From Clostridia bacterium (GTDB lineage Bacteria > Bacillota > Clostridia > CAKSNL01 > HGM11501), in the NCBI GenBank assembly GCA_045545475.1, contig JAZQAZ010000008.1, positions 122,691 through 186,690 on the forward strand: 64,000 bases of DNA, given 5' to 3'. The notes beneath the pieces are model-generated. The model had not been told where the DNA came from. It did no database searches and was given only the letters and a program-made list of their open reading frames with translations. The position numbers were made by a program, and so were the translations under genes. Positions 29,902-47,008 of this stretch are shown one piece after another (within the stretch, counting starts at the first letter, position 1; every line of letters starts with the position of its first letter).

Positions 29902-32487
29902 ATGAAGACATTTAACGAAAAATTCAATGCAGTATTAAAAAATGAGCCCGACAATTATCTTCTTCCGTTTCTTTGGGTTCATAACGAAGATGATGAACTC
30001 TTAAAAAGAGAGATTCAGAAGATTTATGAGTCCGGGATAAGGGCTGTCTGCGTGGAATCCAGAACCCACGAAGAATTCGGCAAGGATGACTGGTGGAGCG
30101 ATATGCAGCTTATCTTCGATGAGTGCGAAAAATTAGGTATGGAAGTATGGCTTCTTGACGACAAACATTTCCCGACAGGATTTGCTGTGGATCAGGCATC
30201 CGCTCCCGAAAATGCCCATCTTGTAAAAAGAAGATTTACAGAACTTCACACCGATGTTGTCGGCCCGTGTAAAAACCACAATCTTATTATCGATACCAAG
30301 CTTCCGGAAAATCCTGATATTGTAAAAATAGTTGCATACAAAAGAAACAGTATAGAATTTGAATATTCGGCAGAATTCATTGATCTTACAGATAAGTATG
30401 AAGACGGACTTATAAAAAATATGGATCTTTCGGAGGGTATCTGGTCTGTATTTACGTTATATACATATCCCGTGCCTGAAGAAAGACATATTGATACATT
30501 AAACCCAGAGGCTTGCGATATTTTGGTTAATGCGGTTTATGAGCCGATGTACGAACATTTTTCAAAGTATTTCGGAAATATATTTAAGGGATTCTTCTCG
30601 GATGAACCTTATATAGCACGTTGTACATTACCGACAGAAGGTGAAACGAGTTTTAACGGTGCACTTCCTTGTAATCACCTTGTTTTTGAACGATTGATAG
30701 AAAGATTCGGTGACGATGCACTTTGCAAACTTCCTTCTCTTCTTTATAATGTAGAAGGCGTTTCACCCGAATTCAGAGTTGCCTATATGGATATTGTATC
30801 AACTCTTTATGCGGAAAGCTTCTGTCAAAAGCTTGGTGACTGGTCGAGAGCACATGGTGTTGAATATATCGGTCACGTTATAGAAGATAACAGCCGTGAT
30901 ACAAAATTCGCATCAGGAGCTCACTTTTTCCGTTCCATGGACGGACAGGATATGGGCGGTATTGACGTTGTGTTAAACGAAATACTTCCAGGTTTTCAGG
31001 ATTGCAAGGCTACCATCTGCCATGGTATTCAGTATGCTGACCACGAGTTTTTCCATTATGAACTTGCGAAGCTTGCATCCAGTCACAGTCACATCCAGAA
31101 AGATGTTAAAAAGGGAAGAGCGATGTGTGAAATGTATGGTGCATTCGGTTGGGCAGAAGGTCTTAAGATGATGAAATGGCTTTCCGACCATATGCTTGTC
31201 CGCGGAATCAACTATTTTGTTCCTCATGCTTTTTCGGGAATAAGCCCCGACCTTGACTGTCCTCCTCATTTTTACGAGGGCGGAACATATTCTCAGTTCA
31301 AGGACTTTAAGTCTTTGATGGAATATTCCAACCGTGTAAGTACTCTTCTTACAGACGGCGACCATAAGTGCAAGGTAGCTCTTTATTACAGAGCAGAAGG
31401 CGAATGGTCCGGCGGAAGAAACGGACATGAAAAGAAATATGCTAAAATTCTTACGGATAATCAGATTGACTTTGACATTATTCCTCTTGATTACCTTATT
31501 AATGCTACAGTTGATGACGGAAATATCGTTCTCTGCGACGAAAAATATCCTTGCCTAGTAGTTCCTAACAGCGAATATCTTCCTATAAAAGCATTAAGAC
31601 GCTTTACAGAGCTTGCCGATGCAGGTGTTAAGGTAATTTTTGCAGGTGGTTATATAGATAAAAGCTGTGAAGGGGAGAGTGTATCTTTCTTAAATGGCGA
31701 AAACCTTATTGAGGTAGCACCCGAAAAATTAGTTTCATATTTAAGAAGTGAAGGTCTTTATGATATTTCGCTTTCAAAACCCCATCAGAATTTAAGATAC
31801 TATCGCTACATAAACGGTAATAACGAAATTTATATGTTTGTTAACGAAGATATCTTAAAATCCTGCGAAACAGTTGTTTATCCCGAAGGATTCAGCGGCG
31901 GAACATATATTGAATACGACGCAATGAATAATGTTGCTGTGAAGAAAGTAACAAATGACGGAATCAAGCTTAATCTCGATCCCTACAATTCAGTATTTAT
32001 AATTTTAGGTGATGTGGATGCCGACATTCCTGCGTTTGAAGAGCTTACCGAGGCAAAGAGATCTCTTGTTCCCGAAAGCTATGACGTATCTTTGGCAGAA
32101 GGAAGCGAAGATTATACATTCACTCCTTTTAAAAAGGATTTTGTACTCTGCAATATCAATGCACTTCCCGGAATGGACCGCTTTGCAGGACATATAAAAT
32201 ACGAGACTAAAGTTAATGTTGATGCAAGCGGATATAAAAAACTTTATCTCGAAATCGAAAATGCCGGTGAGACAGTTAATGTGGCTGTAAACGGAAAGAA
32301 AGCTTTGGGAAGAATAGTTCCTCCTTACAAGTTCGATATTACAGACCTTGTAAAAGCAGGGGAGAACGAACTTGAAATTATCGTAACAACTCATATGGGA
32401 TTCCGTGAAAGAGATAAATTTTCAAGATACATGGTAATGGAGCCCACCGGTATGTCGGGAAAAGTTGAGCTTGTAGAATACAAATAA
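29902..32487 (+). CDS. Large glycoside hydrolase, GH106-like with GH2-type sugar-binding C-terminus
   Basis: PFLW, WLLDDKHFPTG, FFSDEP, EMYGAFGW and RGINYFVPHAF motifs. Confidence 0.7.
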   Translation: MKTFNEKFNAVLKNEPDNYLLPFLWVHNEDDELLKREIQKIYESGIRAVCVESRTHEEFGKDDWWSDMQLIFDECEKLGMEVWLLDDKHFPTGFAVDQASAPENAHLVKRRFTELHTDVVGPCKNHNLIIDTKLPENPDIVKIVAYKRNSIEFEYSAEFIDLTDKYEDGLIKNMDLSEGIWSVFTLYTYPVPEERHIDTLNPEACDILVNAVYEPMYEHFSKYFGNIFKGFFSDEPYIARCTLPTEGETSFNGALPCNHLVFERLIERFGDDALCKLPSLLYNVEGVSPEFRVAYMDIVSTLYAESFCQKLGDWSRAHGVEYIGHVIEDNSRDTKFASGAHFFRSMDGQDMGGIDVVLNEILPGFQDCKATICHGIQYADHEFFHYELAKLASSHSHIQKDVKKGRAMCEMYGAFGWAEGLKMMKWLSDHMLVRGINYFVPHAFSGISPDLDCPPHFYEGGTYSQFKDFKSLMEYSNRVSTLLTDGDHKCKVALYYRAEGEWSGGRNGHEKKYAKILTDNQIDFDIIPLDYLINATVDDGNIVLCDEKYPCLVVPNSEYLPIKALRRFTELADAGVKVIFAGGYIDKSCEGESVSFLNGENLIEVAPEKLVSYLRSEGLYDISLSKPHQNLRYYRYINGNNEIYMFVNEDILKSCETVVYPEGFSGGTYIEYDAMNNVAVKKVTNDGIKLNLDPYNSVFIILGDVDADIPAFEELTEAKRSLVPESYDVSLAEGSEDYTFTPFKKDFVLCNINALPGMDRFAGHIKYETKVNVDASGYKKLYLEIENAGETVNVAVNGKKALGRIVPPYKFDITDLVKAGENELEIIVTTHMGFRERDKFSRYMVMEPTGMSGKVELVEYK

Positions 32488-32491
32488 TTAT

Positions 32492-32516
32492 AAGGGCGGG
32501 CATTGCCCGCCCTTTA
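32492..32516 (+). terminator. Intrinsic terminator
   Basis: AAGGGCGGGC-ATT-GCCCGCCCTTT. Confidence 0.7.
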
Positions 32517-32557
32517 CTAAATAGCAATATTTTTATATTTTTAAGCAAGATAGTTTA

Positions 32558-32586
32558 TTTACAAAAAGATATATTTGGTATAAACT
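32558..32586 (+). promoter_or_regulatory. Promoter of epimerase/oxidoreductase operon
   Basis: TTTACA-17 bp-TAAACT. Confidence 0.55.
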
Positions 32587-32612
32587 GAAGAAAAATAAAA
32601 GGAGATGTAAAT

Positions 32613-33467
32613 ATGTATAAATTTCCCATCGGCGTAATGGTTGAATCCTTCCGCCTTCCCACAAAAGATGCTATAAAGAGAGCTGCTGCAATCGGTGCGA
32701 ACGGTCTTCAGATGTATGCAACTCACGGAGAAAACTCTCCCGAAAATTTAAAAGGAGATAAGGTAAAAGAGCTTCTCGCCTTCGTAAAGGATAACGGTCT
32801 TTGCTTCTCAGCACTTTGCGGTGACCTTGGAAGAGGCTTTGGTAATGCAGAGCTTAATCCCGGTTTAATTGAACAGTCTAAGAAAATTCTTTATCTCGCA
32901 AAGGAGCTTGAAACAGACATCGTTACAACCCACATTGGCGTTGTTCCTTCGGATAAGAATCACGAAAGATATAAAATTATGCAGGAGGCTTGCCATACTC
33001 TTGCAGAATTCGCTGACAGTCTGGATGCTCATTTCGCTATAGAGACCGGCCCTGAAACAAGCGCCGTATTAAAAGAATTTCTCGATTCACTCGGCTCAAA
33101 GGGCGTTGCAGTAAACTTAGACCCCGCAAACCTCGTAATGGTAACAGGCGACAATCCTGTAACGGCGGTTCATAACTTAAAAGATTATATCGTACACACC
33201 CACGCAAAAGACGGAAATAAGCTTTGCGATAAGAATCCTGAATATGTTTACGGAATAATCAAGGCTCCCGAAGATGTTAAAAACGTACAGAGCTTTGAAG
33301 AAGTACCCTTAGGAACAGGCAGCGTTCCTTTCCCTGAATACTTAAAGGCACTTGAGGAAATAGGATACAAGGGCTTTTTGACAATTGAAAGGGAATGCGG
33401 AGCAGATCCTGAAAGAGATATTGTTACTGCGTATAATTTCTTAAATAAAGTAATCAGCGAAAATTAA
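32613..33467 (+). CDS. Sugar phosphate isomerase/epimerase (AP_endonuc_2 TIM barrel)
   Basis: IETGPE, NLDPANL, HTHAKD and TIERE metal motifs. Confidence 0.88.
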   Translation: MYKFPIGVMVESFRLPTKDAIKRAAAIGANGLQMYATHGENSPENLKGDKVKELLAFVKDNGLCFSALCGDLGRGFGNAELNPGLIEQSKKILYLAKELETDIVTTHIGVVPSDKNHERYKIMQEACHTLAEFADSLDAHFAIETGPETSAVLKEFLDSLGSKGVAVNLDPANLVMVTGDNPVTAVHNLKDYIVHTHAKDGNKLCDKNPEYVYGIIKAPEDVKNVQSFEEVPLGTGSVPFPEYLKALEEIGYKGFLTIERECGADPERDIVTAYNFLNKVISEN

Positions 33468-33487
33468 TTCCGAAAGAGGTTGATTTT

Positions 33488-34558
33488 ATGAAAAAGTTAA
33501 GAATTGGTATGGTTGGCGCAGGAAACATTGCGAAAGCGCATCTTGATTCTTATATGAGTAATCCGAATGTTGAAATTACGGCAATATGTGACTTTAACGA
33601 AGCTACACTTAAAGCAACTGCTGATAAATATAAGATAGAAAAAGCATTTCTTTCCGAAAAAGAAATGCTTGAAAATGTAGAGCTTGATGCTGTTGACGTT
33701 TGCGTATGGAACTGTTCGCATGCCGAATGTTCGATAATGGCGTTAAACAAAGGGCTTGATGTACTTTGCGAAAAGCCTATGGCTATGAATGCCAAAGAAG
33801 CAGAAGAAATGCTTGAAGCCGCAAAGAAAAACGAAAAACTTCTTATGCTTGGGTTTGTTACAAGATTTTCAAACGAAGCAAAAGTTACGAAGGACTTTAT
33901 TGAAAAGGGATACCTTGGAGATATCTATATGGCAAAGGCTACATATGTAAGAAGGAACGGAAATCCTTCGGGATGGTTTTCGGATAAATCCCGTTCAGGT
34001 GGTGGTCCCGTAATTGATATCGGAGTGCATCCTCTTGATTTAACACGATACCTTATGGGAAATCCTAAGCCTGTTTCGGTTTACGCAGCAACTTATGATT
34101 TGCTTCATGAAAGCCGTGCAAAGCTTCGTACGAAGGCTGCATGGATGCCTGCAGGAGCTGATCCGGAAACAGATGTTTGCGATGTTGAAGACAGTGCAAT
34201 TGCTATTATTCGTTATGATAACGGAGCAACAACCTTGCTCGAGGCAAGCTATGCAATAAACGGAAGTCCTAAGGGAGAAAGAAATATCTACGGAACCAAA
34301 GGCGGAATTGACCTGCAAGACGGAAAACTCACTTTACACACTGATGTAAACGGATTTATGTCTGACAGCCAGCTTTTGGATCTTGACCAGATGAAAGAAT
34401 CTAAAGGCATGTTTAAAGCAGAAATGGACCACTTTGTTGATTGCTGCTTAAACAAAACAAAATGTATGTCACCGGCAGAAGACGGCGTTGAAGTAATGAA
34501 AATACTTGATGCTATTTACGAATCCGCAAGAACAGGACATGAGGTGATTATAAAATGA
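33488..34558 (+). CDS. Gfo/Idh/MocA family oxidoreductase
   Basis: GAGNIA, CEKP and GGGPVIDIGVH motifs. Confidence 0.92.
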   Translation: MKKLRIGMVGAGNIAKAHLDSYMSNPNVEITAICDFNEATLKATADKYKIEKAFLSEKEMLENVELDAVDVCVWNCSHAECSIMALNKGLDVLCEKPMAMNAKEAEEMLEAAKKNEKLLMLGFVTRFSNEAKVTKDFIEKGYLGDIYMAKATYVRRNGNPSGWFSDKSRSGGGPVIDIGVHPLDLTRYLMGNPKPVSVYAATYDLLHESRAKLRTKAAWMPAGADPETDVCDVEDSAIAIIRYDNGATTLLEASYAINGSPKGERNIYGTKGGIDLQDGKLTLHTDVNGFMSDSQLLDLDQMKESKGMFKAEMDHFVDCCLNKTKCMSPAEDGVEVMKILDAIYESARTGHEVIIK

Positions 34559-35430
34559 AAATTTCAGTAAGCTCATATTCCTACAGCAGGTATTTAACAC
34601 AAGGGCATACAATTCTTGATGTTGTTGATAAAGCTCACGAAATGGGCTTTTCCGCAATGGAATTTATTGATATTCCGGGGGATGATTTTCCTGCCAGAAA
34701 GGAAAAAGCAAAAGAGGTAAAAGAAAGACTTGATTCCTACGGAATGGAAGTAACCGCATATACGATCGGTGCAGATATGTATAAAACCGGAGATGATTTC
34801 AAGAATCAGTTCGATACACTTAAGCATCAGCTTGATATTGCAGCAATTCTTAACGCTCCTTTAATGAGACATGATGCAACTTATCAGAAGCCTGTTATCG
34901 GAAACGGTCTTATGAGTTTTGATAAAATGCTTCCCGTAATGGCTGAAAATACCAGAGTAGTAACAGAATATGCAAAGACTTTGGGAATCAAAACCTGCGT
35001 TGAAAATCACGGCTATGTTGTCCAGGATGCTGAGCGATTAGAGCGCTATTTCAACGCCGTAAATCACGAAAATTTCGGTCTTTTGGTTGATATGGGAAAT
35101 TTCCTTTGTGCCGACTCTGACCCGATTTTATCGGTTTCCCGTCTTGCACCTTATGCAATTCACGTTCATGCCAAGGATATGATTTTCTACTCCGGTGAAG
35201 GTCACAATCCCGGTGGAGGGTGTTTTTCCACAAGAGGAGGAAACTGGCTCAGAGGTACAGTAATCGGGCAGGGAAGCGTTCCTGTTAAGCAGTGCCTCCG
35301 TGTGCTCCGCTTCGCAGGGTACACAGGCAATCTGGGGATTGAATTTGAAGGATGCGAAGACCCGATAGAATCAATAGACAGAGGACATACTAACTTAAAG
35401 AAGTATCTTAAGCAGCTTGACAATGAATAA
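34555..35430 (+). CDS. Sugar phosphate isomerase/epimerase (AP_endonuc_2)
   Basis: VENHG, VDMGNF, HVHAKD and IEFEG motifs. Confidence 0.88.
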   Translation: MKISVSSYSYSRYLTQGHTILDVVDKAHEMGFSAMEFIDIPGDDFPARKEKAKEVKERLDSYGMEVTAYTIGADMYKTGDDFKNQFDTLKHQLDIAAILNAPLMRHDATYQKPVIGNGLMSFDKMLPVMAENTRVVTEYAKTLGIKTCVENHGYVVQDAERLERYFNAVNHENFGLLVDMGNFLCADSDPILSVSRLAPYAIHVHAKDMIFYSGEGHNPGGGCFSTRGGNWLRGTVIGQGSVPVKQCLRVLRFAGYTGNLGIEFEGCEDPIESIDRGHTNLKKYLKQLDNE

Positions 35431-35465
35431 AAAATAATCGCAGGCAACGCCTGCGATTATTTTTT
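35429..35465. terminator. Bidirectional terminator
   Basis: AAAAATAATCGCAGGC-AAC-GCCTGCGATTATTTTT. Confidence 0.85.
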
Positions 35466-36329
35466 ATTTGTATTTCTGTATTCTCCGGGAGTTTTTCCGG
35501 TTAATTTTTTAAATGATTTTATAAAATGAGGGATATCAGTAAAACCAACATTTGTTACAATTGTATTTATCGGAAGATTTGTTGTGTGAAGAAGATCCAT
35601 TGCAAGATTCATCCTGTATCTGACCAGAAAGTTGTGAAGCGTATCTCCTGTGTTTTCTTTGAAAATTCTGTTAAGATACGAAGGGTTGAAATGAAAATAT
35701 TCACCGATGGTTTCGTTTGTCAAATCAAGGTGATAATTATTTTCTATATACTGAATAACCTTTCTCACTGTTTCGTAATTCTTTTTCTTTTCAGATGTTT
35801 CCGTAAGTTCTGCAGTTTTCGCAAGAGTGATAAGAATAAACTTAAGGCATGAGGAAAGGTATTCCTGTGAATAGTTGTTTTTAAGGTAATACTCAGATGC
35901 CAGAAGTCTTAAATTAGCTTCCACTGAAGTGGCGTTTTTGATATAAACAGGTGTGTTTAATATTTTCGCATCCTCAAAGTTGATTATTTCAAGAATGTCT
36001 TCTTCAGAAAAGTTTTCCGAATGAACAGGGTGGAAAGAAGCAGTATGACTCGAAAAATTCATTGTGTAATCGAAGTTCACAAAAAGAGCACTCACACCTT
36101 TTTCATCAAGCTGCCAGACATATCTTGTACCCGATTTAAAAAGAATGGCACAACCCTGATGCAAGGGGTAAACCGTATCTTCAATTTTTATACTTCCGTT
36201 TCCGTTTAAGATGTAAAACAATCTGCAATCAGAAGTGCGCAGTTCTTTATAAACATCGTTTTTTACGCGGGAACTTAAATTCGATATTATAACCTGTCGT
36301 GTGAAAGGCTCTATGTTACCTATAAGCAT
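35457..36329 (-). CDS. AraC family regulator (cupin + HTH), divergent from the glycyl-radical operon
   Basis: VGFTDIPHFIKSFKKLTGKTPGEYR; AAGGAGG RBS before ATG 36329. Confidence 0.88.
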   Translation of the reverse strand: MLIGNIEPFTRQVIISNLSSRVKNDVYKELRTSDCRLFYILNGNGSIKIEDTVYPLHQGCAILFKSGTRYVWQLDEKGVSALFVNFDYTMNFSSHTASFHPVHSENFSEEDILEIINFEDAKILNTPVYIKNATSVEANLRLLASEYYLKNNYSQEYLSSCLKFILITLAKTAELTETSEKKKNYETVRKVIQYIENNYHLDLTNETIGEYFHFNPSYLNRIFKENTGDTLHNFLVRYRMNLAMDLLHTTNLPINTIVTNVGFTDIPHFIKSFKKLTGKTPGEYRNTNKK

Positions 36330-36520
36330 CGGAAAACCTCCTTTGTTAAAACATTCTATCACATTAAAGACAATTATGCAATAGTGTATTTTGTTGTTCT
36401 TAAAGGGTTTTTGAAAAGATAAAAGTACAAAAAACACAATTTGATGTGTGTTTTAGACATTTACTTATTTTTTATATGATAGTATTATGATAGTGAAGAA
36501 AAAGTGACAGAGGGGATAGT

Positions 36521-37420
36521 ATGAAAGGAATAATAACCAACATCCAGCGTTTCTCGCTTACTGACGGCGACGGTATACGTACCACAGTGTTTTTTAAAGG
36601 TTGTAACTTAAATTGTACGTGGTGCCATAATCCGGAAACTATAAATAGAGGAAGCGAACTTCTGTTTTACGAAAACAAATGCATCGGCTGCGGAAAATGC
36701 TTTGAAAGCTGCCCTGAGAAAGCACATATTACGGTTGACGGCAAGCATAAAATTGACCGTACTAAATGCATCGGTTGCGGAAAATGTGCTGATACTTGCT
36801 ACGCCGAAGCTCTTATGATGTGCGGAAAGAATATGTCTGTTTCCGATATTTTGAAAGAAGTTAAACAAGATAAGGCGTATTACGATGCATCCTGTGGTGG
36901 TGTTACATTATCCGGTGGAGAAGTTTTGTGCCAAAAGGATTTTGCCATGGAACTTATTGATGCATGCCATAAAGAAGACATTAAAGTAGCAGTTGAGACA
37001 AATATTTGTTTTTCCTTTGATTATGCAAAAGAGTTCCTTTTAAAGTGTGACCTTATAATGTGTGATCTTAAAATATGGGACGAAGAAGATCACGTAAAAT
37101 ATACCGGTGCGTTAAATTCTAAAATTATAGAAAACATCAGAAAACTTGACGAAATGAATATTCCGTTTATAGTAAGAACTCCGCTTATTCCGGGTGCAAC
37201 AGACAGTGATGAAAACATAAGGACAATTGCATCATTCCTTAAGGGTCATAAAAACTTAAAAAGATACGAAATTCTTAACTACAATCCTCTGGGAGAAGGA
37301 AAGTATAAAGCACTTAATGTGAAAAACGATTTCGAAAATGCAAGGCCTTTCGGAAAAGAACGGCTTGATGAAATCAAAGCAATTCTCGATGAAACGGGAA
37401 TCAACTATAAAATAATTTAA
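36521..37420 (+). CDS. Glycyl-radical enzyme activating protein (radical SAM with ferredoxin insert)
   Basis: DGDGIRTTVFFKGCNLNCTWCHNPE; two CxxCxxCxxxC motifs; GGVTLSGGE. Confidence 0.95.
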   Translation: MKGIITNIQRFSLTDGDGIRTTVFFKGCNLNCTWCHNPETINRGSELLFYENKCIGCGKCFESCPEKAHITVDGKHKIDRTKCIGCGKCADTCYAEALMMCGKNMSVSDILKEVKQDKAYYDASCGGVTLSGGEVLCQKDFAMELIDACHKEDIKVAVETNICFSFDYAKEFLLKCDLIMCDLKIWDEEDHVKYTGALNSKIIENIRKLDEMNIPFIVRTPLIPGATDSDENIRTIASFLKGHKNLKRYEILNYNPLGEGKYKALNVKNDFENARPFGKERLDEIKAILDETGINYKII

Positions 37421-37432
37421 GGAGAATGTAAA

Positions 37433-39637
37433 ATGAGTGAACTTACATTTATAAACAGGTTTTCAGTTGATGAAAAGTTTACATATGATAAAAGAATTGA
37501 ACTTCTCCGCAAAAGAAAGATAGAACAGACGGAAGAAAAAGCACGTCTAGGCGGGGCAAACGAGGATGATTACGGACTTATTGTTCAGGATGAATTCAAG
37601 TATAAGCTTAAGCCCAATCATGAAAACGGATCCATTTACGGATATAAGGCGTGGACAGAGAATTACTGTGCGATACTTGACTCTCATCCGTTATACTGCG
37701 ATCCCTTAGATGCTTTCGTTGGAAAAGGATTTCTGTTTTTAGAAAGATTGAGACCTGTTACCTGCAAGTGGAATCCTGACTATCCTTTTGATGAGTTAAA
37801 GGTTTTGTTCGATAAGTATAACATAATTTCCGGCATTGATAACTGTCACCATTTCACGCCGGACCTTGAAATAGGATTCAAGCTGGGATGGGGAGGTATA
37901 CTTAAAAAGCTTAAAGAACAAAGAGAGCTACACGACGAAACACACTATGAATTCTATGACAGCGAAATTCAGGTTGTTGAAGCGATAATCAGATTCTTAC
38001 GCCGTATGGCAACTGAGATAGAGTATCTTGTCAAAAAAGAGACTAATCCCGAATTGAAAGAAAATCTTTACGCTATGGCTAAGGTTAATATGAAAACAGC
38101 ATCTGAGCCACCTGAAACCTTCCGAGAAGCTGTGCAGTGGATGTGTTGGTTCAGTATGCTTTCAAGAACATATAACCGAGGAAGTGCAGGCGGACAGCTT
38201 GACGAAATGCTTCGTCCTTATTATGAAAGAGATATTGAAAAAGGGATTCTGACAGACGATGAAGCTGTTTTCTATCTCGCTTGTCTCTTTTTACAGGACA
38301 GCCGTTATTTCCAGCTTGGAGGCCCCGATGCAGAGGGCAGGGATATGACATCTAAAATTTCTTATCTTTGTTTAGATGCTGCAGATAAAATTAATATTGC
38401 ATGTAATCTTACAATCAGAGTTCACGATAATTTGGATGAAGATTTCTTTAAAAAGTCGGTTTATTATCTTTTCAAAAACAAGCAGGGATGGCCCAGATAC
38501 TCATCGGATACAGCTTTGGCCGAAGGATTTATGAAATGCGGATATCCTTTGGAGCTTGCGAGAAAACGAGTGGCGGCTGGATGTCACTGGATGTGCATAC
38601 CGGGAATGGAATATACCATGAACGATACGGTCAAAATTAACCTTGCTAAGGTTTTTGAGGTTGCTTATTACGATATGATGGCATCGGGAGTTAAGTCCAC
38701 AGAGGAGCTCTGGAAGCTTTACAAGATGCACTTAAAGGCCGCGGTTGATGCAACCGGAAATGGAATAATGCACCACCTTAAATATCAGACTAAGAGTCAG
38801 CCGGAGCTTATATTAAATCTTTTTCAGCACGGTCTTATTGAAAAAGGAGTAAACATAACAGACGGCGGAGCAAACTACTACAACATGTGCGTTGACGGAA
38901 GCGGAATAGCCGTTGTTGCAGATAGCTTTGCCGCTTGTCAGCAGAGGGTAGAGCTCGAAGGTAAAATCACTTTTGACGAACTTACAAAACATTTGAAAGA
39001 GAATTTTTCCGGTAAAGACGGAGAATATATCCGCGTAATGCTACAAAACAGCCAGCGATACTGTGGAGGCGATACGTTGGGCGATGACTGGGCTAAGAGG
39101 ATAAGTGAGCTTTATACAGAGCTTGTAAGGGATCTTAACAATCAGCATCCCGGAATTAATTTCATTCCCGGATTTTTCTCCTGGTCAAACACAATAGGCC
39201 TTGGAAAAACTGTTTCTGCCACGCCTAACGGCAGAAAGGCTTACGATGCGATAAACCACGGTGCAAATCCCAACGGAGGTTTCAGAAAAGACGGTGCGGT
39301 TTCCGCAATGTGCAATTCCATCGGAGCTATTCAGCCGGGCTACGGCAACTGCGCTCCGGTTCAGCTTGAATTTGACCCGGGAATTGTCAATGACGAAGAA
39401 GGAATAGAAAAAATGGCAGCGATGATAAAAACCATAATGAACACGGGAAATACTTTGCTTAATATTAACATCATTGATGCAAAAAAGATACTTGAGGCAC
39501 ATAAAGATCCGTTCAAGTACCCCGATTTGGTTGTCAGAGTTACGGGTTTTACTGCATTTTTCGCAATGCTGTCACCTGAATTCAGGCAACTTGTTGTAGA
39601 CAGAGTTACATCCGTTAATCCGGATGCGTGTATATAA
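37433..39637 (+). CDS. Glycyl-radical enzyme (PFL superfamily) of unknown reaction
   Basis: C-terminal YPDLVVRVTGF (Gly705), ATPNGR, Cys loop AAGCHW (Cys384); adjacent activase. Confidence 0.92.
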   Translation: MSELTFINRFSVDEKFTYDKRIELLRKRKIEQTEEKARLGGANEDDYGLIVQDEFKYKLKPNHENGSIYGYKAWTENYCAILDSHPLYCDPLDAFVGKGFLFLERLRPVTCKWNPDYPFDELKVLFDKYNIISGIDNCHHFTPDLEIGFKLGWGGILKKLKEQRELHDETHYEFYDSEIQVVEAIIRFLRRMATEIEYLVKKETNPELKENLYAMAKVNMKTASEPPETFREAVQWMCWFSMLSRTYNRGSAGGQLDEMLRPYYERDIEKGILTDDEAVFYLACLFLQDSRYFQLGGPDAEGRDMTSKISYLCLDAADKINIACNLTIRVHDNLDEDFFKKSVYYLFKNKQGWPRYSSDTALAEGFMKCGYPLELARKRVAAGCHWMCIPGMEYTMNDTVKINLAKVFEVAYYDMMASGVKSTEELWKLYKMHLKAAVDATGNGIMHHLKYQTKSQPELILNLFQHGLIEKGVNITDGGANYYNMCVDGSGIAVVADSFAACQQRVELEGKITFDELTKHLKENFSGKDGEYIRVMLQNSQRYCGGDTLGDDWAKRISELYTELVRDLNNQHPGINFIPGFFSWSNTIGLGKTVSATPNGRKAYDAINHGANPNGGFRKDGAVSAMCNSIGAIQPGYGNCAPVQLEFDPGIVNDEEGIEKMAAMIKTIMNTGNTLLNINIIDAKKILEAHKDPFKYPDLVVRVTGFTAFFAMLSPEFRQLVVDRVTSVNPDACI

Positions 39638-39649
39638 GGAGGAATAGAA

Positions 39650-40426
39650 ATGAACGTAGTAATGGAAAAAATCGACACATCGGTTAAAGGAAACAGAAGT
39701 ATTGAGCTTTGTAAGGGAGAAATCCCCGGTGCGCATCCTGTGCATCATACAATTGAAAAGGGCTCATCTCTTACATTGGACGCAAACGAGGGATATTATC
39801 ACATCATAATTTTAATAGAAGGCACAGCGATTTTTGAAACCGATGGAAAGAGCCTTACATTTGACGGAAGAACCACTTTTGTTCCCGCTCCCGATAAGGA
39901 GCTTATCATAAAAGCTGAAACAGATGTACAGATTCTCGAAATTCAGTGGGACGAGGCACCCGGTGATGAAGAAGACTTAAAGGAATATAAGACAGAATTC
40001 CCTGTTGTAGTTCCGTATCAGGAGTCCATTCAGTATATCGACCCAAATAAGAGCGAAAAGACCATAAGTAGAATGATGATCCCTCATCAGGTACTTCCGA
40101 GATTTACCATAGGCTCTGTTGAATCCTACGGATATGACCTTGTAAGGCCACACGCGCATCCTATGCTTGACCAGTTCTTTTTCAGCTTCCCCGAAAATGA
40201 TATGGATGTTATTATTGATGACGAAAAAATCAATATGAAGGGCAATATCATAATGCATATTCCTTTAGGCTCTAATCACGGTGTAGAGGTTACGGGAGAC
40301 AGACATATGCATTATATGTGGATTGACTTTATGCCCGATAAAGAAGCAGGATTAAAGCGCCTTAATTTCAGTCACAGACCTACAGGCACCGTACGCGACT
40401 TTGCAAACGAGGATAAACACAGATGA
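39650..40426 (+). CDS. Bicupin-fold protein
   Basis: HAHPMLDQFFF and HIPLGSNHGV metal-cupin motifs in C-terminal half; cupin-like N-terminal half. Confidence 0.7.
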   Translation: MNVVMEKIDTSVKGNRSIELCKGEIPGAHPVHHTIEKGSSLTLDANEGYYHIIILIEGTAIFETDGKSLTFDGRTTFVPAPDKELIIKAETDVQILEIQWDEAPGDEEDLKEYKTEFPVVVPYQESIQYIDPNKSEKTISRMMIPHQVLPRFTIGSVESYGYDLVRPHAHPMLDQFFFSFPENDMDVIIDDEKINMKGNIIMHIPLGSNHGVEVTGDRHMHYMWIDFMPDKEAGLKRLNFSHRPTGTVRDFANEDKHR

Positions 40427-41463
40427 TTGACTTAAGTAAGCCAATAAAGCTTGACAGGGCAGGGGCGTGGCGCACATATTCCGGCGGAAAGCTGATTGAT
40501 GCCATTCACGGAATCGAAAACAGCGTAGACACTAACTTTCCGGAAGAGTGGATGATTTCTACCGTAAGAGCAAGAAATGCAGGGAGAGAGGATATTATTG
40601 AGGGGCTTAGTATGGTATCAGGAACGGATATTTCCCTTGCTGATTTAATCAAAGAAAATCCTGGAAAGCTTCTCGGAAAAAAGCATATTGAAAAATTCGG
40701 CTGCAATTTAGGCGTTCTTGTAAAAATTCTTGATGCGGCAGAAAGACTTACAATCCAGGTTCATCCTACAAGAGCGAAAGCAAAAGAACTTTTCAATTCC
40801 GATTACGGCAAAACAGAATGCTGGCATATTATAGGCGGAAGAGAAATAGGCGGAGAAAAGCCATCAATATATTTCGGATTTAAAGAAGGAATATCAAAAG
40901 AATACTGGAGGGAAGTTTTTAACAAGCAGGATATTTCTGCAATGCTTTCCTGCCTTCATAAATTTGAAGTTGAAAAAGGTGACACCTATTTAATTGAAGG
41001 CGGAATACCTCACGCTATAGGTGCAGGATGCTTACTTATTGAAGTGCAGGAGCCTACGGATTATACTATAAGGACAGAAAGAGTTACTCCTAAAGGACTC
41101 AAGGTTGCAGATTCTATGTGTCATCAGGGACTTGGATTTGAGAAAATGTTTGACTGCTTCAATTATGATGGCTTAAGTGAAGAAGAAACTAAAAAAAGAT
41201 GGAAAATCAAATGCGAAAACGGAAACATCATCTGCTATGAAAATACAGAGATGTTTGCCCTTAAAGAGCTTATGTTAGACGGGGAAGAGATTTTATCTTC
41301 CGAAGGCGTTTTCAGCGGAATTTACATCCTTGAAGGAAAAGGATTTGTGGGCGATGAACCGGTATGTGGAGGAAGCCAGTTCTTTATCGGTGCATCCTGC
41401 GAAGACTTTACAGTTAAAGGCAAAATGAAACTTATAAGATTTTATGGACCAAAGGAGGATTAA
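40423..41463 (+). CDS. Class I mannose-6-phosphate isomerase-like protein
   Basis: PEEW, LVKILDA, LTIQVHP, GKTECW, PHAIG and EVQEP motifs. Confidence 0.85.
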   Translation: MIDLSKPIKLDRAGAWRTYSGGKLIDAIHGIENSVDTNFPEEWMISTVRARNAGREDIIEGLSMVSGTDISLADLIKENPGKLLGKKHIEKFGCNLGVLVKILDAAERLTIQVHPTRAKAKELFNSDYGKTECWHIIGGREIGGEKPSIYFGFKEGISKEYWREVFNKQDISAMLSCLHKFEVEKGDTYLIEGGIPHAIGAGCLLIEVQEPTDYTIRTERVTPKGLKVADSMCHQGLGFEKMFDCFNYDGLSEEETKKRWKIKCENGNIICYENTEMFALKELMLDGEEILSSEGVFSGIYILEGKGFVGDEPVCGGSQFFIGASCEDFTVKGKMKLIRFYGPKED

Positions 41464-41464
41464 T

Positions 41465-42262
41465 ATGAAATACGGCTTTTGCAAAGAGTTTTCAACTCCG
41501 CTTAAAACCGAGGTTGATTATGAACTTATAAAAACCATTAAAGAGGCAGGCTTTGACTATGTTGAAATGCGTGCTATGCTGGTTTCTTCTTTAAGCGATG
41601 AAGAATTCGATAAACTCTATAATACACTTAAAGAATTGGAGTTAGGTTGTGAGTGTAGTTGTGCTCTTTTTCCGAAAACCATAAGAGTAACGGGTAAAGA
41701 TGCGAATAAAGAAGAAATTGCAGTATATATCGAAAAGACCTTTTCAAGACTTAATAAATTAGGTGCAAAAAAGGTTGTTTTCGGTAGTGCTCCGGCAAGA
41801 GCACTTGATGAAGAAACGACAGAAGAAATGGGATATGAACAGATTTCAGAAATCTGCAATGAAATAATCGTTCCTGCGGCAGAAAAGTATGATATCACCG
41901 TTGTAATGGAGCCGTTAAGAGCTTCGGCCTGTAACTTTATTAATACATTGGCTGATGGTATGAAGGTTGTAAATAGGGTTAATCACGAAAGAATAGCTCT
42001 TTTGGCGGACACAATACACATGATGGCAAACGAAGATAATCCAGAAGACATCATAAAATATAAGGACAGCTTAAGGCATATTCATATTTCTGAAATGGAC
42101 AGAGTTATGCCTGAGGATTCCTACAGCGACTTTGTACATAATGTGCTAAATAACCTTATAAATAACGGTTATGACGGAACAATATCCTTTGAAACGAAGA
42201 ACGGCAACGGATTGGATAGTATGAAAAAAGCACTTGCTTTATTAAAAAACACATTTAATTAA
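41465..42262 (+). CDS. Sugar phosphate isomerase/epimerase (ketose 3-epimerase-like)
   Basis: VFGS, MEPL, NFINT, LADTIHM, HIHISE and ISFE motifs; AGGAGG RBS before ATG 41465. Confidence 0.85.
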   Translation: MKYGFCKEFSTPLKTEVDYELIKTIKEAGFDYVEMRAMLVSSLSDEEFDKLYNTLKELELGCECSCALFPKTIRVTGKDANKEEIAVYIEKTFSRLNKLGAKKVVFGSAPARALDEETTEEMGYEQISEICNEIIVPAAEKYDITVVMEPLRASACNFINTLADGMKVVNRVNHERIALLADTIHMMANEDNPEDIIKYKDSLRHIHISEMDRVMPEDSYSDFVHNVLNNLINNGYDGTISFETKNGNGLDSMKKALALLKNTFN

Positions 42263-42282: not shown

Positions 42283-43293
42283 ATGGCAATTAAAACAGCA
42301 GTAATTGGTTGCGGACGTACCGCAAACGAGCTTCACGCTCCGGTTTTGGAAAAGCATCCCGAGTTTGAGGTTACGGCAATTTGCGACGTAAATACAGAGG
42401 CTCTTGACAAGTATTCCGAAAGATTCCCGAATGCAAAGAAATATACAGACTATCACACAATGCTTAACAGTACCGAATATGATTTTGCAATAATTCTTAC
42501 ATACAGCTACACCCACACGGCAATCGCACTTGATTTTCTTCGTGCAGGCAAAAATGTTCTTATTACAAAACCCTGGGCAATAACAACTGACGAGGCTGAT
42601 TCTATCATCAAAACCGCGAAAGAAAATAATTGCATCGTAATGCCCTTTATTCCTTGCCATGATGGTGCCGATGTGGTAAAATTGAAGGAAATCATCAAAG
42701 AAGGAAAAATCGGTAAGGTATTCAGAGTTTACCGTGCACAGATGACCTTCGGCAAGAGAAGCGACTGGCAGACATTAAAGGCTTATGCAGGCGGATACTT
42801 AAACAACTGGGGACCCCATATCGTTGAGCAGGCAATGTGCCTTGTTGATGAGCCGATAAAGTCAGTTTATGCTCAGAAGAGACAGATTATAAATCCCGGT
42901 GATGCCGACGATATGTTCTGCTCAACACTTATCACTGAAAGCGGTGTCATCGTCCAGGTTGACCATAACATCATTTCAGACTATCTGCCTAATTGGGTTG
43001 TTCAAGGGGATAAGGGTACAATTTATGTAAAAGGTAACGAAATGGAAATTCACGAAATTTCTTATCCCGGTGCAGACGATCCTACCGTTTACAGAAGCGT
43101 AACTCATACAGAAAAGACCCATATTACACTTGAAGGAAAAATCTTCGGCGATCATTACTCAATCTATACTATGATTGCAGAAACCCTTAAGGGCAAGCCT
43201 TACATTGTAACACTTGAATATGCAAGACACTTAACGGAAATCATGCAGTCAATTCACGAGTCTGCTGATAATAATAAGCTTGTATTACTTTAA
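42283..43293 (+). CDS. Gfo/Idh/MocA family oxidoreductase (atypical TKPW, NWGPH)
   Basis: GCGRTA Rossmann motif; GGYLNNWGPH. Confidence 0.85.
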   Translation: MAIKTAVIGCGRTANELHAPVLEKHPEFEVTAICDVNTEALDKYSERFPNAKKYTDYHTMLNSTEYDFAIILTYSYTHTAIALDFLRAGKNVLITKPWAITTDEADSIIKTAKENNCIVMPFIPCHDGADVVKLKEIIKEGKIGKVFRVYRAQMTFGKRSDWQTLKAYAGGYLNNWGPHIVEQAMCLVDEPIKSVYAQKRQIINPGDADDMFCSTLITESGVIVQVDHNIISDYLPNWVVQGDKGTIYVKGNEMEIHEISYPGADDPTVYRSVTHTEKTHITLEGKIFGDHYSIYTMIAETLKGKPYIVTLEYARHLTEIMQSIHESADNNKLVLL

Positions 43294-43310: not shown

Positions 43311-44522
43311 ATGGAAAAATTGACAGTTGCATTTGTAGGATGCGGAAGCTTTGCGAGAAACTTTGTTGAGCTTTTTCAGGTTCATCCTGCTGTTGAAAAG
43401 GTTTATGTATGTGACCTTATTCCCGAAAGAGCTAAAGAATATTCTGAAAAGTTCAATTGCGAGATAATACCTACTTTTGAAGATATTCTTGCTGACAAAT
43501 CCATTAACTGTATTGCAAACTTTACACAGAGACACTTACACGGCGATATCGTTATCCGAGCATTAAAGGCAGGAAAGCACGTTTACAGCGCAGTTCCCAT
43601 GGCATCGGAAGTGGAGGAGTGCCAGGAAATCGTTAAGCTTGTAAAGGAAAATGACTTGATTTATATGATGGGCGAGACCTGCTATTATTATCCTTGTGCA
43701 ATGTATTGCCGTGAAGCAAACAAAGCAGGTAAATTCGGTAAGTTCGCTTATGGTGCAGCACAGTATTATCATAATGTTGATTACATTTCATACGGCAAAC
43801 GCCCCAACGAAGGCGGTATGCCTCCGCTTTTGTATCCTACACATTCAACCGGTATGATACTTTCTGCAGCTGATTCCTATGCTGTAAGAGTTGTTGCTTT
43901 CGGATACGAGGATCAGGAAAACGACGGCCGCTTCCAGGGAACGGATAATCAGTGGAACAACAAGTTCTCAAATCAGTATGTTATGATGCTTCTTGCAAAC
44001 GGGGCAACTGTTCGTGTTACAGAAGCAAGAAGATTCGGCTGGTTTAAGCCCAGCTCATACATTTCCGCTGTTTACGGAACCAAAGGTGGATATGAGTACA
44101 GCAACGCACAGCACATTCTGGTAGAGATGGATACAAGCCTTGACAGAGAAAATGCAAAGCTTACTGATGTAAGTGATTATGTAAACTCCTATGCAATGAC
44201 CGAAAATAAAAACCATCCTGATTTCAAGAATCTTGTTGCAAATTGTGCATGGCAGGGAAGCGATGTTTCTCCCATTCAGGAGCCTGAAATCGCAAGACTT
44301 CCCGAAAGCTATGGCCCTATTTCAAACGGCCATATGGGAACTCATAAATTCCTTATTGACGACTTCTGTAAAGCCGTTTACAATCACAAGCAGCCCATTC
44401 TTAATGCCTGGACCGCTGCAAGATATACAATACCCGGTCTTGTTGCAATTGAATCTGCAAATAAAGGCGGAATGCCTATCGATGTTCCGGACTGCGGAGA
44501 TTGCCCGAAAGAGCTTATGTAA
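43311..44522 (+). CDS. Gfo/Idh/MocA family oxidoreductase (SAVP subtype)
   Basis: GCGSFA, KHVYSAVP, MMGET and PPLLYPTHS motifs. Confidence 0.87.
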   Translation: MEKLTVAFVGCGSFARNFVELFQVHPAVEKVYVCDLIPERAKEYSEKFNCEIIPTFEDILADKSINCIANFTQRHLHGDIVIRALKAGKHVYSAVPMASEVEECQEIVKLVKENDLIYMMGETCYYYPCAMYCREANKAGKFGKFAYGAAQYYHNVDYISYGKRPNEGGMPPLLYPTHSTGMILSAADSYAVRVVAFGYEDQENDGRFQGTDNQWNNKFSNQYVMMLLANGATVRVTEARRFGWFKPSSYISAVYGTKGGYEYSNAQHILVEMDTSLDRENAKLTDVSDYVNSYAMTENKNHPDFKNLVANCAWQGSDVSPIQEPEIARLPESYGPISNGHMGTHKFLIDDFCKAVYNHKQPILNAWTAARYTIPGLVAIESANKGGMPIDVPDCGDCPKELM

Positions 44523-44612: not shown

Positions 44613-46022
44613 ATGAAAAAGACATTTGTAATTTTCGGACTGGTATTTATTTTAGTTACATCTATGCAATTTGCTGTATCTGCTAAGCAGAACGGAAAAG
44701 AGATATCTGTTGTAATTCCCGATTATGAAATTATGCTTGATGATGCATCGGTATACTATTATGATTCCTTATATCCCTTCTTAAATTATAAAGGGGTAAC
44801 ATATTTCCCGGCAACCTTTGAATATTGTAAGAGTATGGATCTTGCCTGCGGTTTCATTGAAAATGAAGCTTTTTTGATTGCATATAATCCTTCCAATCAG
44901 TCTGTACCGATATATGAAACAACGGTTAATACTAAAGAAAACACAGCTGTCGTTCCGACTTATAATATAATTATAAACGGTAAAAAAATAGATAATACAT
45001 CGCTCGAATATCCGTTTTTTAATTTCCGTGGTGTTACTTACATTCCGATGACATGGGATTTTGCGGTAAATGAATTTGGATGGAGACTAGATTTTGCCGG
45101 CAATAAACTCACAATAACAACAGAACCGAAATTATATACCTCGTTGGGGCAGTTGGTTGAAGTGGGTAGGGAAGAATTAATCTTCAGCGAATACGGATAT
45201 TTCGAAATGCCTCAACCTGACGGAACTGTACAAAATATCCCAGGCGTTATTTATTATTCAGTTAGCTTTGAAACAGGCGAAACTACCAGACGTGACGACT
45301 ATGTTTTGAATAATATAAATACGGGTAAATTTAGTAATGATGTAGTTGATGTTTCAGTAAAAGACGGATATGTATATTACGGAGAACAGCAGCTTTCAGG
45401 AGTGTTTATTGAAGAAGCAACACCGGGTTTTGTAAAGCCGGATGATGTCCATACGGTAGACTATCAGGTTAATATGTATAAAACCGATAAGTATGCTCCT
45501 CTTACCGTATGCGAATTAAATGTATATATAGCAAACCGTCGTAATGACGGCAGTGCTTACGGTACAAACAGCGATTATACATATTTACTGCACAATGACA
45601 AAATGATTTTTATCGGAGCTAATACTGAAGTTTCTGACGCTTATGTTATAGGTGACTATATTTATTTTAATACTAATAAATATTGGAAAACCATTCATTC
45701 TCACGCTCTGCAGAATAAAGCACTGCACAGACTTTCAAAAGACGGCACTCTAGAGCAAATAAATTATCCTGATTACAATAATATGGAAATTATTGGTATT
45801 GCAGATGATAAGTTATATCTTAAATGCACCTGGTCACCTAATGACTATGTAGAAGGCTCTGAGGTAGTTACAAGCCTTGTATCGGACGGATACTTTACCT
45901 ATGACGGAGCAAATATTGAAAAAATTGCTGATTATGTGTACTCAACCTTTGATGCAGTATCGCCATATGGTGAAATTTTAGCAATTAATCGCAGACTGGG
46001 AAAAGTAATAAAAGTGAAATAA
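44613..46022 (+). CDS. Secreted hypothetical protein with duplicated N-terminal module (copper-amine-oxidase-N-like)
   Basis: Signal peptide; YPFLNYKGVTYFP and YPFFNFRGVTYIP repeat. Confidence 0.7.
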   Translation: MKKTFVIFGLVFILVTSMQFAVSAKQNGKEISVVIPDYEIMLDDASVYYYDSLYPFLNYKGVTYFPATFEYCKSMDLACGFIENEAFLIAYNPSNQSVPIYETTVNTKENTAVVPTYNIIINGKKIDNTSLEYPFFNFRGVTYIPMTWDFAVNEFGWRLDFAGNKLTITTEPKLYTSLGQLVEVGREELIFSEYGYFEMPQPDGTVQNIPGVIYYSVSFETGETTRRDDYVLNNINTGKFSNDVVDVSVKDGYVYYGEQQLSGVFIEEATPGFVKPDDVHTVDYQVNMYKTDKYAPLTVCELNVYIANRRNDGSAYGTNSDYTYLLHNDKMIFIGANTEVSDAYVIGDYIYFNTNKYWKTIHSHALQNKALHRLSKDGTLEQINYPDYNNMEIIGIADDKLYLKCTWSPNDYVEGSEVVTSLVSDGYFTYDGANIEKIADYVYSTFDAVSPYGEILAINRRLGKVIKVK

Positions 46023-46033
46023 ATGGAGGAAAT

Positions 46034-46984
46034 ATGAAAATTACAGTACTTGATGCAAAAACTTTAGGTGAAGATTTATCTCTGGAACCGCTTAAGACTG
46101 TTGGAGAATGTGTTATATATGGCGAAACCAAATCTGAAGAAATTGCAGAACGCATAAAAGACACAGATGTTGTTATCATAAATAAAATCAAGCTTAATGA
46201 AACAAACTTAAAAGATGCAAAAAACTTAAAGCTTATATGTTTAGCTGCAACGGGATACGATAATGTTGATACTGTTTACTGCAGAGAACACGGCATTGCG
46301 GTATGTAATGTTGTAGGATACTCATCCCACTCGGTGGCACAGCTTACAGCAACATTGGTTCTGGCGTTATCGACAAACCTTACATCCTATACAGATTTTG
46401 TAAATAAAAGGAAATATCAGAAAAGCGGCGTTGCAAACCGTCTTACCCCGGTTTATCACGAATTATTTGGAAAGACCTGGGGAATTATCGGCTACGGAAA
46501 TATCGGAAAAGAAGTGGGAGGTATTGCTAAAGCTTTAGGATGTAATGTAATATACACAAGAAAAACTCCAGACGAAAATACCATTGATATTGATACACTT
46601 TGCAAAGAAGCTGATATCATAACAATTCACACCCCTTTGAACCCTGAAACAAAGCATTTAATTAATGAAAATAGAATCAATTCAATGAAAAAAGATGTGA
46701 TAATAGTAAATGTTGCCCGTGGTGCAGTTACTGATGAAGAAGCTGTAGCAAATGCAATAAAAACAGGTAGGGTAGGGGGCTTTGCAACGGATGTATACTC
46801 TGTTGAACCCTTTGGCGATAATCATCCCTTTAACGATATATTAAATCATCCTAATGTACTCCTGACACCTCATATGGCATGGGGAGCTTATGAAGCGAGG
46901 AAAAGATGTTTAGATGAAATCATAGAAAACATCAAAGCATTTTATAACGGCGATTTAAGATGCCGTGTAGATTTATTTGAATAA
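46034..46984 (+). CDS. D-2-hydroxyacid dehydrogenase (glycerate dehydrogenase-like)
   Basis: ATGYDNVD, GIIGYGNIG, NVARG, DVYSVEP and TPHMAW motifs. Confidence 0.92.
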   Translation: MKITVLDAKTLGEDLSLEPLKTVGECVIYGETKSEEIAERIKDTDVVIINKIKLNETNLKDAKNLKLICLAATGYDNVDTVYCREHGIAVCNVVGYSSHSVAQLTATLVLALSTNLTSYTDFVNKRKYQKSGVANRLTPVYHELFGKTWGIIGYGNIGKEVGGIAKALGCNVIYTRKTPDENTIDIDTLCKEADIITIHTPLNPETKHLINENRINSMKKDVIIVNVARGAVTDEEAVANAIKTGRVGGFATDVYSVEPFGDNHPFNDILNHPNVLLTPHMAWGAYEARKRCLDEIIENIKAFYNGDLRCRVDLFE

Positions 46985-47008
46985 AAAAAGTGCCCGTTAG
47001 GCACTTTT
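46983..47008. terminator. Bidirectional terminator
   Basis: AAAAAAAGTGCC-CGTTA-GGCACTTTTT. Confidence 0.75.

Follow-up and report, generated by a model that had tools for sequence, protein, structure and literature searches.

A glycyl radical enzyme with a Cys-x-Trp catalytic loop belongs to an uncharacterised clade associated with sugar-processing genes

Newly assigned classes of glycyl radical enzymes (GREs) have exposed hidden anaerobic pathways, among them the conversion of choline to trimethylamine and the pathways of hydroxyproline, sulfonates and anhydroglycolysis. In anhydroglycolysis, the isomerases PflD and YbiW convert 1,5-anhydromannitol-6-phosphate and 1,5-anhydroglucitol-6-phosphate to 1-deoxyfructose-6-phosphate (PDB 8yjo, 8id0 and 8id7). 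A review of June 2026 divides the superfamily, in its available text, into seven classes (PMC13450708); the adjacent Cys-Cys pair is limited there to PFL and TdcE, the C-X-E motif, whose Glu is bonded to the substrate, is kept by all GRE eliminases and all three isomerases, and His164 of glycerol dehydratase is the acid for the departing hydroxyl. A Cys-x-Trp class is not named in that text. Here we describe a GRE with such a loop, encoded at 37433-39637 (+) of a 64,000-nucleotide stretch of a Clostridia bacterium contig (JAZQAZ010000008.1, positions 122,691 to 186,690), which is hereafter called the window. This enzyme is a new functional variant within the known superfamily and, because it combines a conserved sugar-processing operon with Trp in place of the catalytic Glu, it is likely to catalyse a hitherto undescribed reaction of carbohydrates.

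The open reading frame (ORF) starts with ATG and encodes 734 aa. Residues 140-591 matched the PFL-like family PF02901 (2.7e-99, profile positions 159-647 of 647), and the Gly_radical family PF01228 was also found (6.9e-15). The catalytic Cys384 lies within A-A-G-C-H-W-M-C; according to the structure alignment and homologue conservation, the codons of the thiyl loop G383-C384-H385-W386 are at 38579..38590 (+). The glycyl radical loop R702-V-T-G705-F706 is encoded at 39536..39550 (+). The AlphaFold2 model (pLDDT 93, pTM 0.93) has the ten-stranded barrel fold and matched about 30 solved GREs in Foldseek with TM scores of 0.77-0.83. PflD is the closest solved relative by sequence (E 2e-56, 195 bits) as well as the top fold match (TM 0.82, 22% identity). 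In the HMMER alignments, the G-C-H-W falls on the G-C-V-E of Escherichia coli PflD (8yjo) and on that of Clostridium butyricum glycerol dehydratase (1r8w), Trp386 occupying the Glu position.

The gene ending 12 bp 5′ of the GRE gene (36521..37420, +) encodes a GRE-activating radical-SAM enzyme of 299 aa with a two-cluster ferredoxin insert. It scored 337 bits with TIGR02494, for which the cut-off is 174, and carries CX3CX2C at C28-C35 and two CX2CX2CX3C ferredoxin motifs. Thus the hallmarks of the superfamily, namely the R-V-x-G-[FYW] loop, the finger-loop Cys and a dedicated radical-SAM activase, are all present, and on these features 37433-39637 is a real, intact GRE gene with its own activase. 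An earlier reading of the window, made from the sequence only, had called this ORF a compact GRE of 734 aa with the Cys384 loop at 38579-38590, the Gly705 loop and a dedicated ferredoxin-insert activase, and each of these points was confirmed; the compactness is seen in the Pfam match, which begins only at profile position 159 of 647, and in the 776-850 aa of the characterised PDB relatives.

The loop is stable among relatives. Each of the 120 homologues nearest to the protein in the database (76-93% identity, 730-746 aa) kept both AAGCHWMC and VRVTGFTA; they carry the label 'formate acetyltransferase' and derive for the most part from metagenome bins of Clostridia, Oscillospiraceae and Lachnospiraceae. 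When we inspected 80 related genome loci, G-C-[HNS]-W was found in 70 of the 70 GRE ORFs that could be called; the other 10 loci gave no full GRE ORF with the simple ORF caller and were excluded from the counts. As judged from such conservation, the Cys-x-Trp pattern is far beyond chance. The stretch itself was traced in part in 20 of the 22 sequencing runs listed, all of which were DNA-type gut metagenomes; none of the 22 was an RNA run containing it.

In an exhaustive HMMER search, 4372 of 1.84 billion cluster representatives matched at E <= 0.001, and 843 of these reached E <= 1e-30, a number that includes GREs outside the Cys-x-Trp group. Of the listed representatives, the 96 that are at least 600 aa long were aligned; the 25 top-scoring lineages (25-54% identity) have [GAV]-C-x-W, where x is H, N, F, Q, Y, G or P, and the remaining ones are mostly G-C-x-E, so that the split is sharp. 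The FastTree phylogeny of 105 rows, from which a single representative longer than 1000 aa was excluded, placed all 26 Cys-x-Trp rows in one clade (SH-like 99), with E. coli PflD and YbiW elsewhere. The same split was obtained with IQ-TREE (LG+G4, SH-aLRT 99) using 49 rows, consisting of the 26 Trp rows, three E. coli proteins, four of the source genome's own paralogues and every fourth Glu-type row, two long-branch paralogues being omitted. Both trees were rooted on E. coli PflB and the source genome's own PFL. On the evidence of these trees, the Cys-x-Trp GREs are a monophyletic, uncharacterised clade, and a large one, whose members number in the thousands.

The clade ranges over gut Clostridia, Bacteroidota polysaccharide loci, Planctomycetota, Verrucomicrobiota and sediment metagenomes, and is frequent among marine and sediment polysaccharide degraders. 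It includes a natural fusion of a radical-SAM activase with ferredoxin insert to the GRE (P0133, 1052 aa). A match at E <= 1e-150 was found in 10 of the 14 genomes of the window's own small order, and P0150, a member of a deep subclade, matched 1 of 401 Bacillota genomes at E <= 1e-100, too few for an analysis of its neighbours. A literature search, which did not cover subscription papers and supplements (where similarity-network tables may stand), found nothing about Cys-x-Trp GREs, nor about GREs tied to Gfo, cupin or phosphomannose-isomerase (PMI) genes.

No curated NCBIfam cut-off for characterised GREs was reached by the 734-aa protein: the scores were 271 bits for TIGR01774 (cut-off 678), 229 for PRK09983 (1109), 226 for HpsG (1000), 215 for HypD (1100), 185 for CutC (1050), 118 for HPAD (1150), 115 for indoleacetate decarboxylase (IAD; 1100) and 68 for the PFL family TIGR01255 (994). 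The two adjacent Cys of the formate lyases (PFL, TdcE) are missing, the loop being G-C-H-W. The C-X-E of the 1,2-eliminases, comprising glycerol dehydratase (GD), propanediol dehydratase (PD), HypD, CutC, IslA, HpsG and HpfG, is also missing, with Trp386 at the Glu position, and the isomerases (PflD, YbiW, HplG) differ likewise by the Trp at Cys+2, PflD and YbiW lying outside the clade. Assignment to the decarboxylases (HPAD, IAD, PAD) is contradicted by their scores, and a small-subunit-like gene was not seen in the operon. The X-succinate synthases were the weakest PDB matches (58-81 bits), and the neighbours of this gene are sugar enzymes. Finally, Gly705 is present, where the aminoacyl radical enzymes have Ala, Ser or Thr.

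Conservation was determined on at least 143 Cys-x-Trp ORFs, 70 from genomes and 73 from metagenomes. The metagenome scan, made with the alignment of the deep subclade, used only the Gly-loop pattern (6 of its 79 hits were non-Trp GREs) and mostly recovered another subclade with G-C-H-W-[CFLS]-A. Across the 143 ORFs, Cys384, Asp398 and, by selection, Trp386 are invariant; Tyr394, Thr704 and Gly705 are found in 142 each, Glu393 in 141 and His140 in 140. Position 458 is Glu in 142 and Asp in one, and position 646 is Glu in 108 and Asp in 35. In the 1r8w alignment, His140, Ser251 and Asp398 correspond to His164, Ser282 and Asp447 of glycerol dehydratase. When 23 diverse Trp-type sequences were compared with 27 Glu-type sequences, W153, W386, Y394, D398, E458, N612, P642 and T704 were clade-specific. 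P-x-P at 457-459 was found in 27/27 Glu-type sequences, and the charge at 646 is swapped, from Lys in 18 of the 27 Glu-type to Glu, Asp or His in 22 of the 23 Trp-type sequences. The query has the full set of features that define the clade: G-C-x-W, R-V-T-G, P-E at 457-458, Y394, D398, an acidic residue or His at 646 and a length of about 700-760 aa. This residue pattern is what would be expected, we infer, if the base had moved off the Cys loop, and the clade-specific acidic residues E393, E458 and E/D646 may supply the missing base.

The sequence-only reading had regarded the enzyme as neither PFL nor a standard eliminase, and this view holds well, because the protein is without Cys-Cys and without Glu at Cys+2, stays below all the cut-offs and belongs to a separate clade; clustering with a characterised GRE, the outcome that was to speak against it, was not seen with PflB, PflD or YbiW in either tree. 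On the other hand, the stress which it laid on His385 and a second Cys has to be given up. His385 is found in 112/143 ORFs, with N, S, F, Q, Y, G and P as alternatives across the clade, and Cys388 in only 23/143. Both were considered as catalytic residues and rejected on conservation, since residues so variable across the clade are not likely to be catalytic, and Trp alone is diagnostic.

The GRE gene is part of an operon in the order AraC (divergent), activase, GRE, bicupin, PMI-like, TIM barrel, Gfo and Gfo, with gaps of -20 to +20 bp. The bicupin (258 aa; 39650..40426, +) has the conserved metal motif H-x-H...D-Q...H in the C-terminal barrel. It gave no Pfam family above the cut-off and no PDB sequence match at E <= 1; its AlphaFold2 model (pLDDT 93.6) retrieved only generic bicupins in Foldseek, with the IolB-like 2qjv at rank 9, and the Atlas gave a KduI cluster at rank 27 (score 0.90); these matches are leads only. 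The next gene (40423..41463, +) encodes a type-I PMI-like cupin of 346 aa (PF20511 4.1e-08, PF21621), in which the Q-x-H, E, H zinc motif is present and the TIGR00218 score, 99.8 bits, is below the cut-off of 116. It is followed by a xylose-isomerase-like TIM barrel (41444..42262, +; PF01261 7e-29), whose closest PDB matches are ketose 3-epimerases and a 3-keto-glucoside 4-epimerase. Two Gfo/Idh/MocA oxidoreductases complete the set. One, of 336 aa (42283..43293, +; PF01408 1.1e-23), has DgpA2 (71 bits) and a sugar 3-ketoreductase among its PDB matches, and the other, of 403 aa (43311..44522, +; PF01408 1.8e-19), matches DgpA1 and DgpA best (60-62 bits).

The divergent regulator (35457..36437, -) is of the AraC family with a cupin-type sensor domain (PF12833 2.3e-20, PF00165 2e-14, weak Cupin_2); a homologue was found in 8 of the 80 related loci, and an activase homologue in 61 of them. 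Promoter-like hexamers (36452..36488, +) lie in the 83-bp gap before the activase gene as three 9/12 consensus matches, which are pattern evidence only. A strong bidirectional terminator with a 20-bp stem (35424-35470) closes an upstream operon (29902-35470) encoding a GH106-like protein of 861 aa, a TIM barrel, an IolG/levoglucosan-dehydrogenase-like Gfo and a second TIM barrel; this resembles an oxidise-eliminate glycoside pathway and may feed the GRE operon. Downstream, a protein of 469 aa with a signal-peptide-like N-terminus and no Pfam or NCBIfam family (44613-46022) stands between the second Gfo and a D-2-hydroxyacid dehydrogenase (46034-46984). Since a phage-integrase-family gene (47008-48051, -) directly follows the cluster, the region with the sugar and GRE genes may lie next to a mobile element.

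Activase, GRE, bicupin and PMI-like isomerase are retained together in orthologues from five phyla, usually in the company of Gfo/Idh/MocA oxidoreductases and xylose-isomerase-like TIM barrels. In 33 orthologue loci (58-88% identity) from Clostridia, Spirochaetota, Kiritimatiellia, Lentisphaeria, Verrucomicrobiota and the isolate Oligosphaera ethanolica, tblastn found the bicupin in 32, the exception being a 1.9-kb contig, and the PMI-like gene in 28. Pfam analysis of 66 further same-strand operon neighbours in these loci gave 27 Gfo/Idh/MocA proteins, 16 xylose-isomerase-like TIM barrels and five PF12831 FAD oxidoreductases; in 13 loci, TIM barrels are fused to Gfo (631 aa). The transporters beside the orthologues are sugar ABC or TRAP systems, and the regulators are LacI, GntR or AraC. 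One locus has a GH38 gene. No kinase, phosphotransferase system (PTS) or aldolase gene was found among the 25 commonest of the 40 neighbour families, which were those tallied.

The source genome (2.74 Mb) contains eight PFL-like genes, on contigs including C3, C15, C17, C31 and C10 (loci L001, L002, L004 and L006-L008). Among these are a canonical Cys-Cys PFL (L002), a G-C-V-E enzyme (L001) and a G-C-N-W paralogue, 48.5% identical, in a minimal unit of AraC, Gfo, activase and GRE. Four further GREs are short as well: two with G-C-Y-E, in tandem on C3, one with G-C-N-E and one with G-C-T-E. They look uncharacterised too.

The subclade of the G-C-N-W paralogue is also found in a Bacteroidota locus (L083:8065-22121) with AraC, activase, GRE, a small cupin, a RhaT-type symporter, SusC, SusD, GH76 and GH92. 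To our knowledge, no radical enzyme inside a mannan-type locus has been described before. In Flammeovirga, a GRE of this subclade stands beside GH47, and GH76/GH92, GH47 and GH38 make a recurrent mannoside theme. In a third subclade, abundant in environmental metagenomes, the GRE is followed by a uroporphyrinogen-decarboxylase-like (URO-D-like) gene (13 loci, including L116, L118, L133, L134, L139, L142 and L162) and then by a solute-binding protein and two ABC permeases. A URO-D-like gene is located just upstream of the GRE in a locus of the deep subclade (L095:6621-7763), the smaller of the two groups, and about 6 kb away on the opposite strand in a second member of that group (L100); the Pfam family was confirmed in one member per subclade (L141 and L095). 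The uroporphyrinogen-decarboxylase family also includes corrinoid methyltransferases.

The reading that we favour, which we hold to have somewhat less than an even chance of being correct, is radical C-O cleavage of an unphosphorylated hexose-type substrate with a relocated base. By the rule of the family, the activase would install the radical on Gly705, which would generate the thiyl radical on Cys384. Cys384 would then abstract a carbinol hydrogen from the substrate, which could be a sugar, glycoside, anhydro-alditol or cyclitol, possibly mannose-related, held against Trp386; this residue would stack on the substrate ring in place of deprotonation. His140 and Asp398 would assist as acids in the departure of the adjacent C-O group (water or an ether oxygen), the proton would go to an acidic residue away from the Cys loop (E/D646, E458 or E393), and return of the hydrogen would give a keto-deoxy or ring-opened keto sugar. 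The bicupin and PMI-like proteins as ketol isomerases, the TIM barrel as epimerase or lyase and the Gfo proteins as 3-keto-sugar oxidoreductases may carry the product to central metabolism. A free sugar is suggested because kinase, PTS and aldolase genes are not among the commonest neighbours, unlike the case of PflD and YbiW. The fold, the activase and its natural fusion to a GRE, the conservation and single origin of the clade, the retained leaving-group residues H140, S251 and D398, the charge swap at 646, the best match to PflD, which is a pyranoid anhydro-sugar enzyme, and the sugar context all speak for this reading.

Several points weigh against C-O cleavage with a relocated base. The substrate, the product and the glycyl radical are all inferred, and the candidate substitutes E646, E458 and E393 are placed by alignment alone. 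According to the available text of the review, the Glu that is missing here is that of every characterised GRE cleaving C-O or C-N bonds (PMC13450708). Named enzymes are matched only weakly (41-94 bits) by the Gfo, TIM and bicupin proteins, and the mannose theme comes mostly from a sister subclade, not from the source operon. Because the partner genes differ by subclade, being URO-D-like in some, the shared chemistry may differ from what the source operon hints at. Rare kinases or aldolases may be present among the neighbours, of which the 25 commonest of 40 families were tallied, and a sister-genome orthologue (G408:C5:26272-28461, 77% identity) has one in-frame TGA, which may reflect a sequencing error, a pseudogene or recoding.

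The replacement of Glu by a residue unable to act as a base is also what would be seen if the enzyme acted on sugars by radical chemistry without a base or C-O cleavage, that is, by epimerisation or by C-C cleavage or rearrangement of a keto-sugar. In the epimerisation version, Cys384 would abstract a hydrogen, and Tyr394, nearly invariant in the clade, or another donor would return it from the opposite face; the minimal sister unit of Gfo, activase and GRE means that a keto-sugar could be the substrate. However, the protein has kept the dehydratases' leaving-group residues (His140 and Asp398), the operon already contains Gfo and TIM proteins, the families that normally epimerise sugars, and there is no GRE precedent, so that we consider base-free chemistry rather unlikely. 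It would be new for GREs, because the review in its available text lists no such class (PMC13450708). Less probable still is a plant or host glycoconjugate or aromatic substrate, such as a C-glycoside or polyphenol, on whose aromatic ring Trp386 would stack in a lyase or decarboxylase reaction. DgpA-type C-glycoside 3-oxidoreductases are the best named PDB matches of the Gfo proteins, but at 60-71 bits the likeness is weak and a DgpB/C-like pair was not recognised; likewise, the GH106-like gene upstream and the animal gut habitat would suit such a substrate, but members of the clade are frequent in polysaccharide degraders from sea and sediment and also in SusC/SusD loci that contain mannosidases, the HPAD and IAD scores are very low, and no small-subunit gene was seen.

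The relatives are named 'formate acetyltransferase' and PflD is the best solved relative, as would be the case if a known reaction (PFL, diol or glycerol dehydratase, or ring opening as by PflD/YbiW) were performed despite the altered loop. We judge this very improbable in view of the missing Cys-Cys and C-X-E, the scores below all curated cut-offs and the position outside the PflB and PflD/YbiW clades. Moreover, the source genome already has a canonical PFL and a G-C-V-E enzyme, and PTS, kinase and aldolase genes such as those beside E. coli pflD and ybiW were not seen among the commonest neighbour families. That the gene is a catalytically dead or decaying paralogue could be argued from the missing canonical base and the in-frame TGA of one orthologue; yet about 20 clade-specific residues, the Gly and Cys loops and the dedicated activase are strongly conserved across phyla, and a natural activase fusion exists, which leaves this explanation hardly any probability.

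If C-O cleavage or a related reaction is extended to the whole clade, the Cys-x-Trp GREs might constitute an eighth functional class, which acts on unphosphorylated carbohydrates and does not use a Cys-loop Glu; we offer this as a speculative proposal, with a good deal more doubt than belief. The reaction could, for instance, be a radical epimerisation, or a glycosidic or ether C-O bond could be broken by radical chemistry to yield an anhydro-keto or deoxy-keto sugar. The sugar served would differ from subclade to subclade, as the partners do (bicupin and PMI-like; Gfo alone in mannan loci; URO-D-like and an ABC transporter). With such a class, anaerobes of gut, sediment and sea would be able to use, without oxygen, sugars that aerobes degrade by means of monooxygenases. 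Independently of this proposal, the clade is without the residue underpinning the accepted mechanism of eliminases and isomerases. If the reaction were assigned, a carbohydrate step would be added to the metabolism of gut and rumen, and it could be seen whether C-O cleavage by GREs needs a Cys-loop base. This is directly testable because cultured carriers exist: Oligosphaera ethanolica DSM 24202 has an orthologue (L048), and Neglectibacter timonensis SN17, Hominenteromicrobium mulieris, Flammeovirga pacifica and Labilibaculum filiforme have GREs of the sister subclade.

Of the known systems, PflD resembles this enzyme best by sequence and fold, with the same barrel, Gly loop and Cys position and a common P-G-x-x-Y-x-x-x-D stretch after the Cys loop. 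PflD and YbiW also share with it the class of ferredoxin-insert activase and a carbohydrate context. They differ in that identity to PflD is 22%, the clade is another one and the GRE N-terminus is shorter here; PTS and aldolase neighbours are found there and none were seen among those tallied here, where the substrate is probably unphosphorylated. In addition, Trp stands here for the Glu which, in the review's available text, deprotonates the C2-OH (PMC13450708). Glycerol and propanediol dehydratases (1r8w, 5i2g; TM 0.81) have counterparts of H140, S251 and D398, whereas their Glu435 is Trp here, the TIGR01774 score is well below its cut-off, and neither microcompartment nor aldehyde dehydrogenase genes were seen by this GRE. 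PFL (PflB, TdcE) belongs to the same superfamily and its database label has been copied onto the homologues, although it has the adjacent Cys-Cys that is missing here, the score of this protein for TIGR01255 is far below the cut-off, and PflB is the outgroup in both trees. The aminoacyl radical enzymes (AAREs) of 2024 have Ala, Ser or Thr at the radical Gly, and their function is not known in the available text of the review (PMC13450708). Like the AAREs, the enzyme described here stands for a recently recognised PFL-like branch; unlike them, it has kept Gly705 intact and altered the Cys loop instead.

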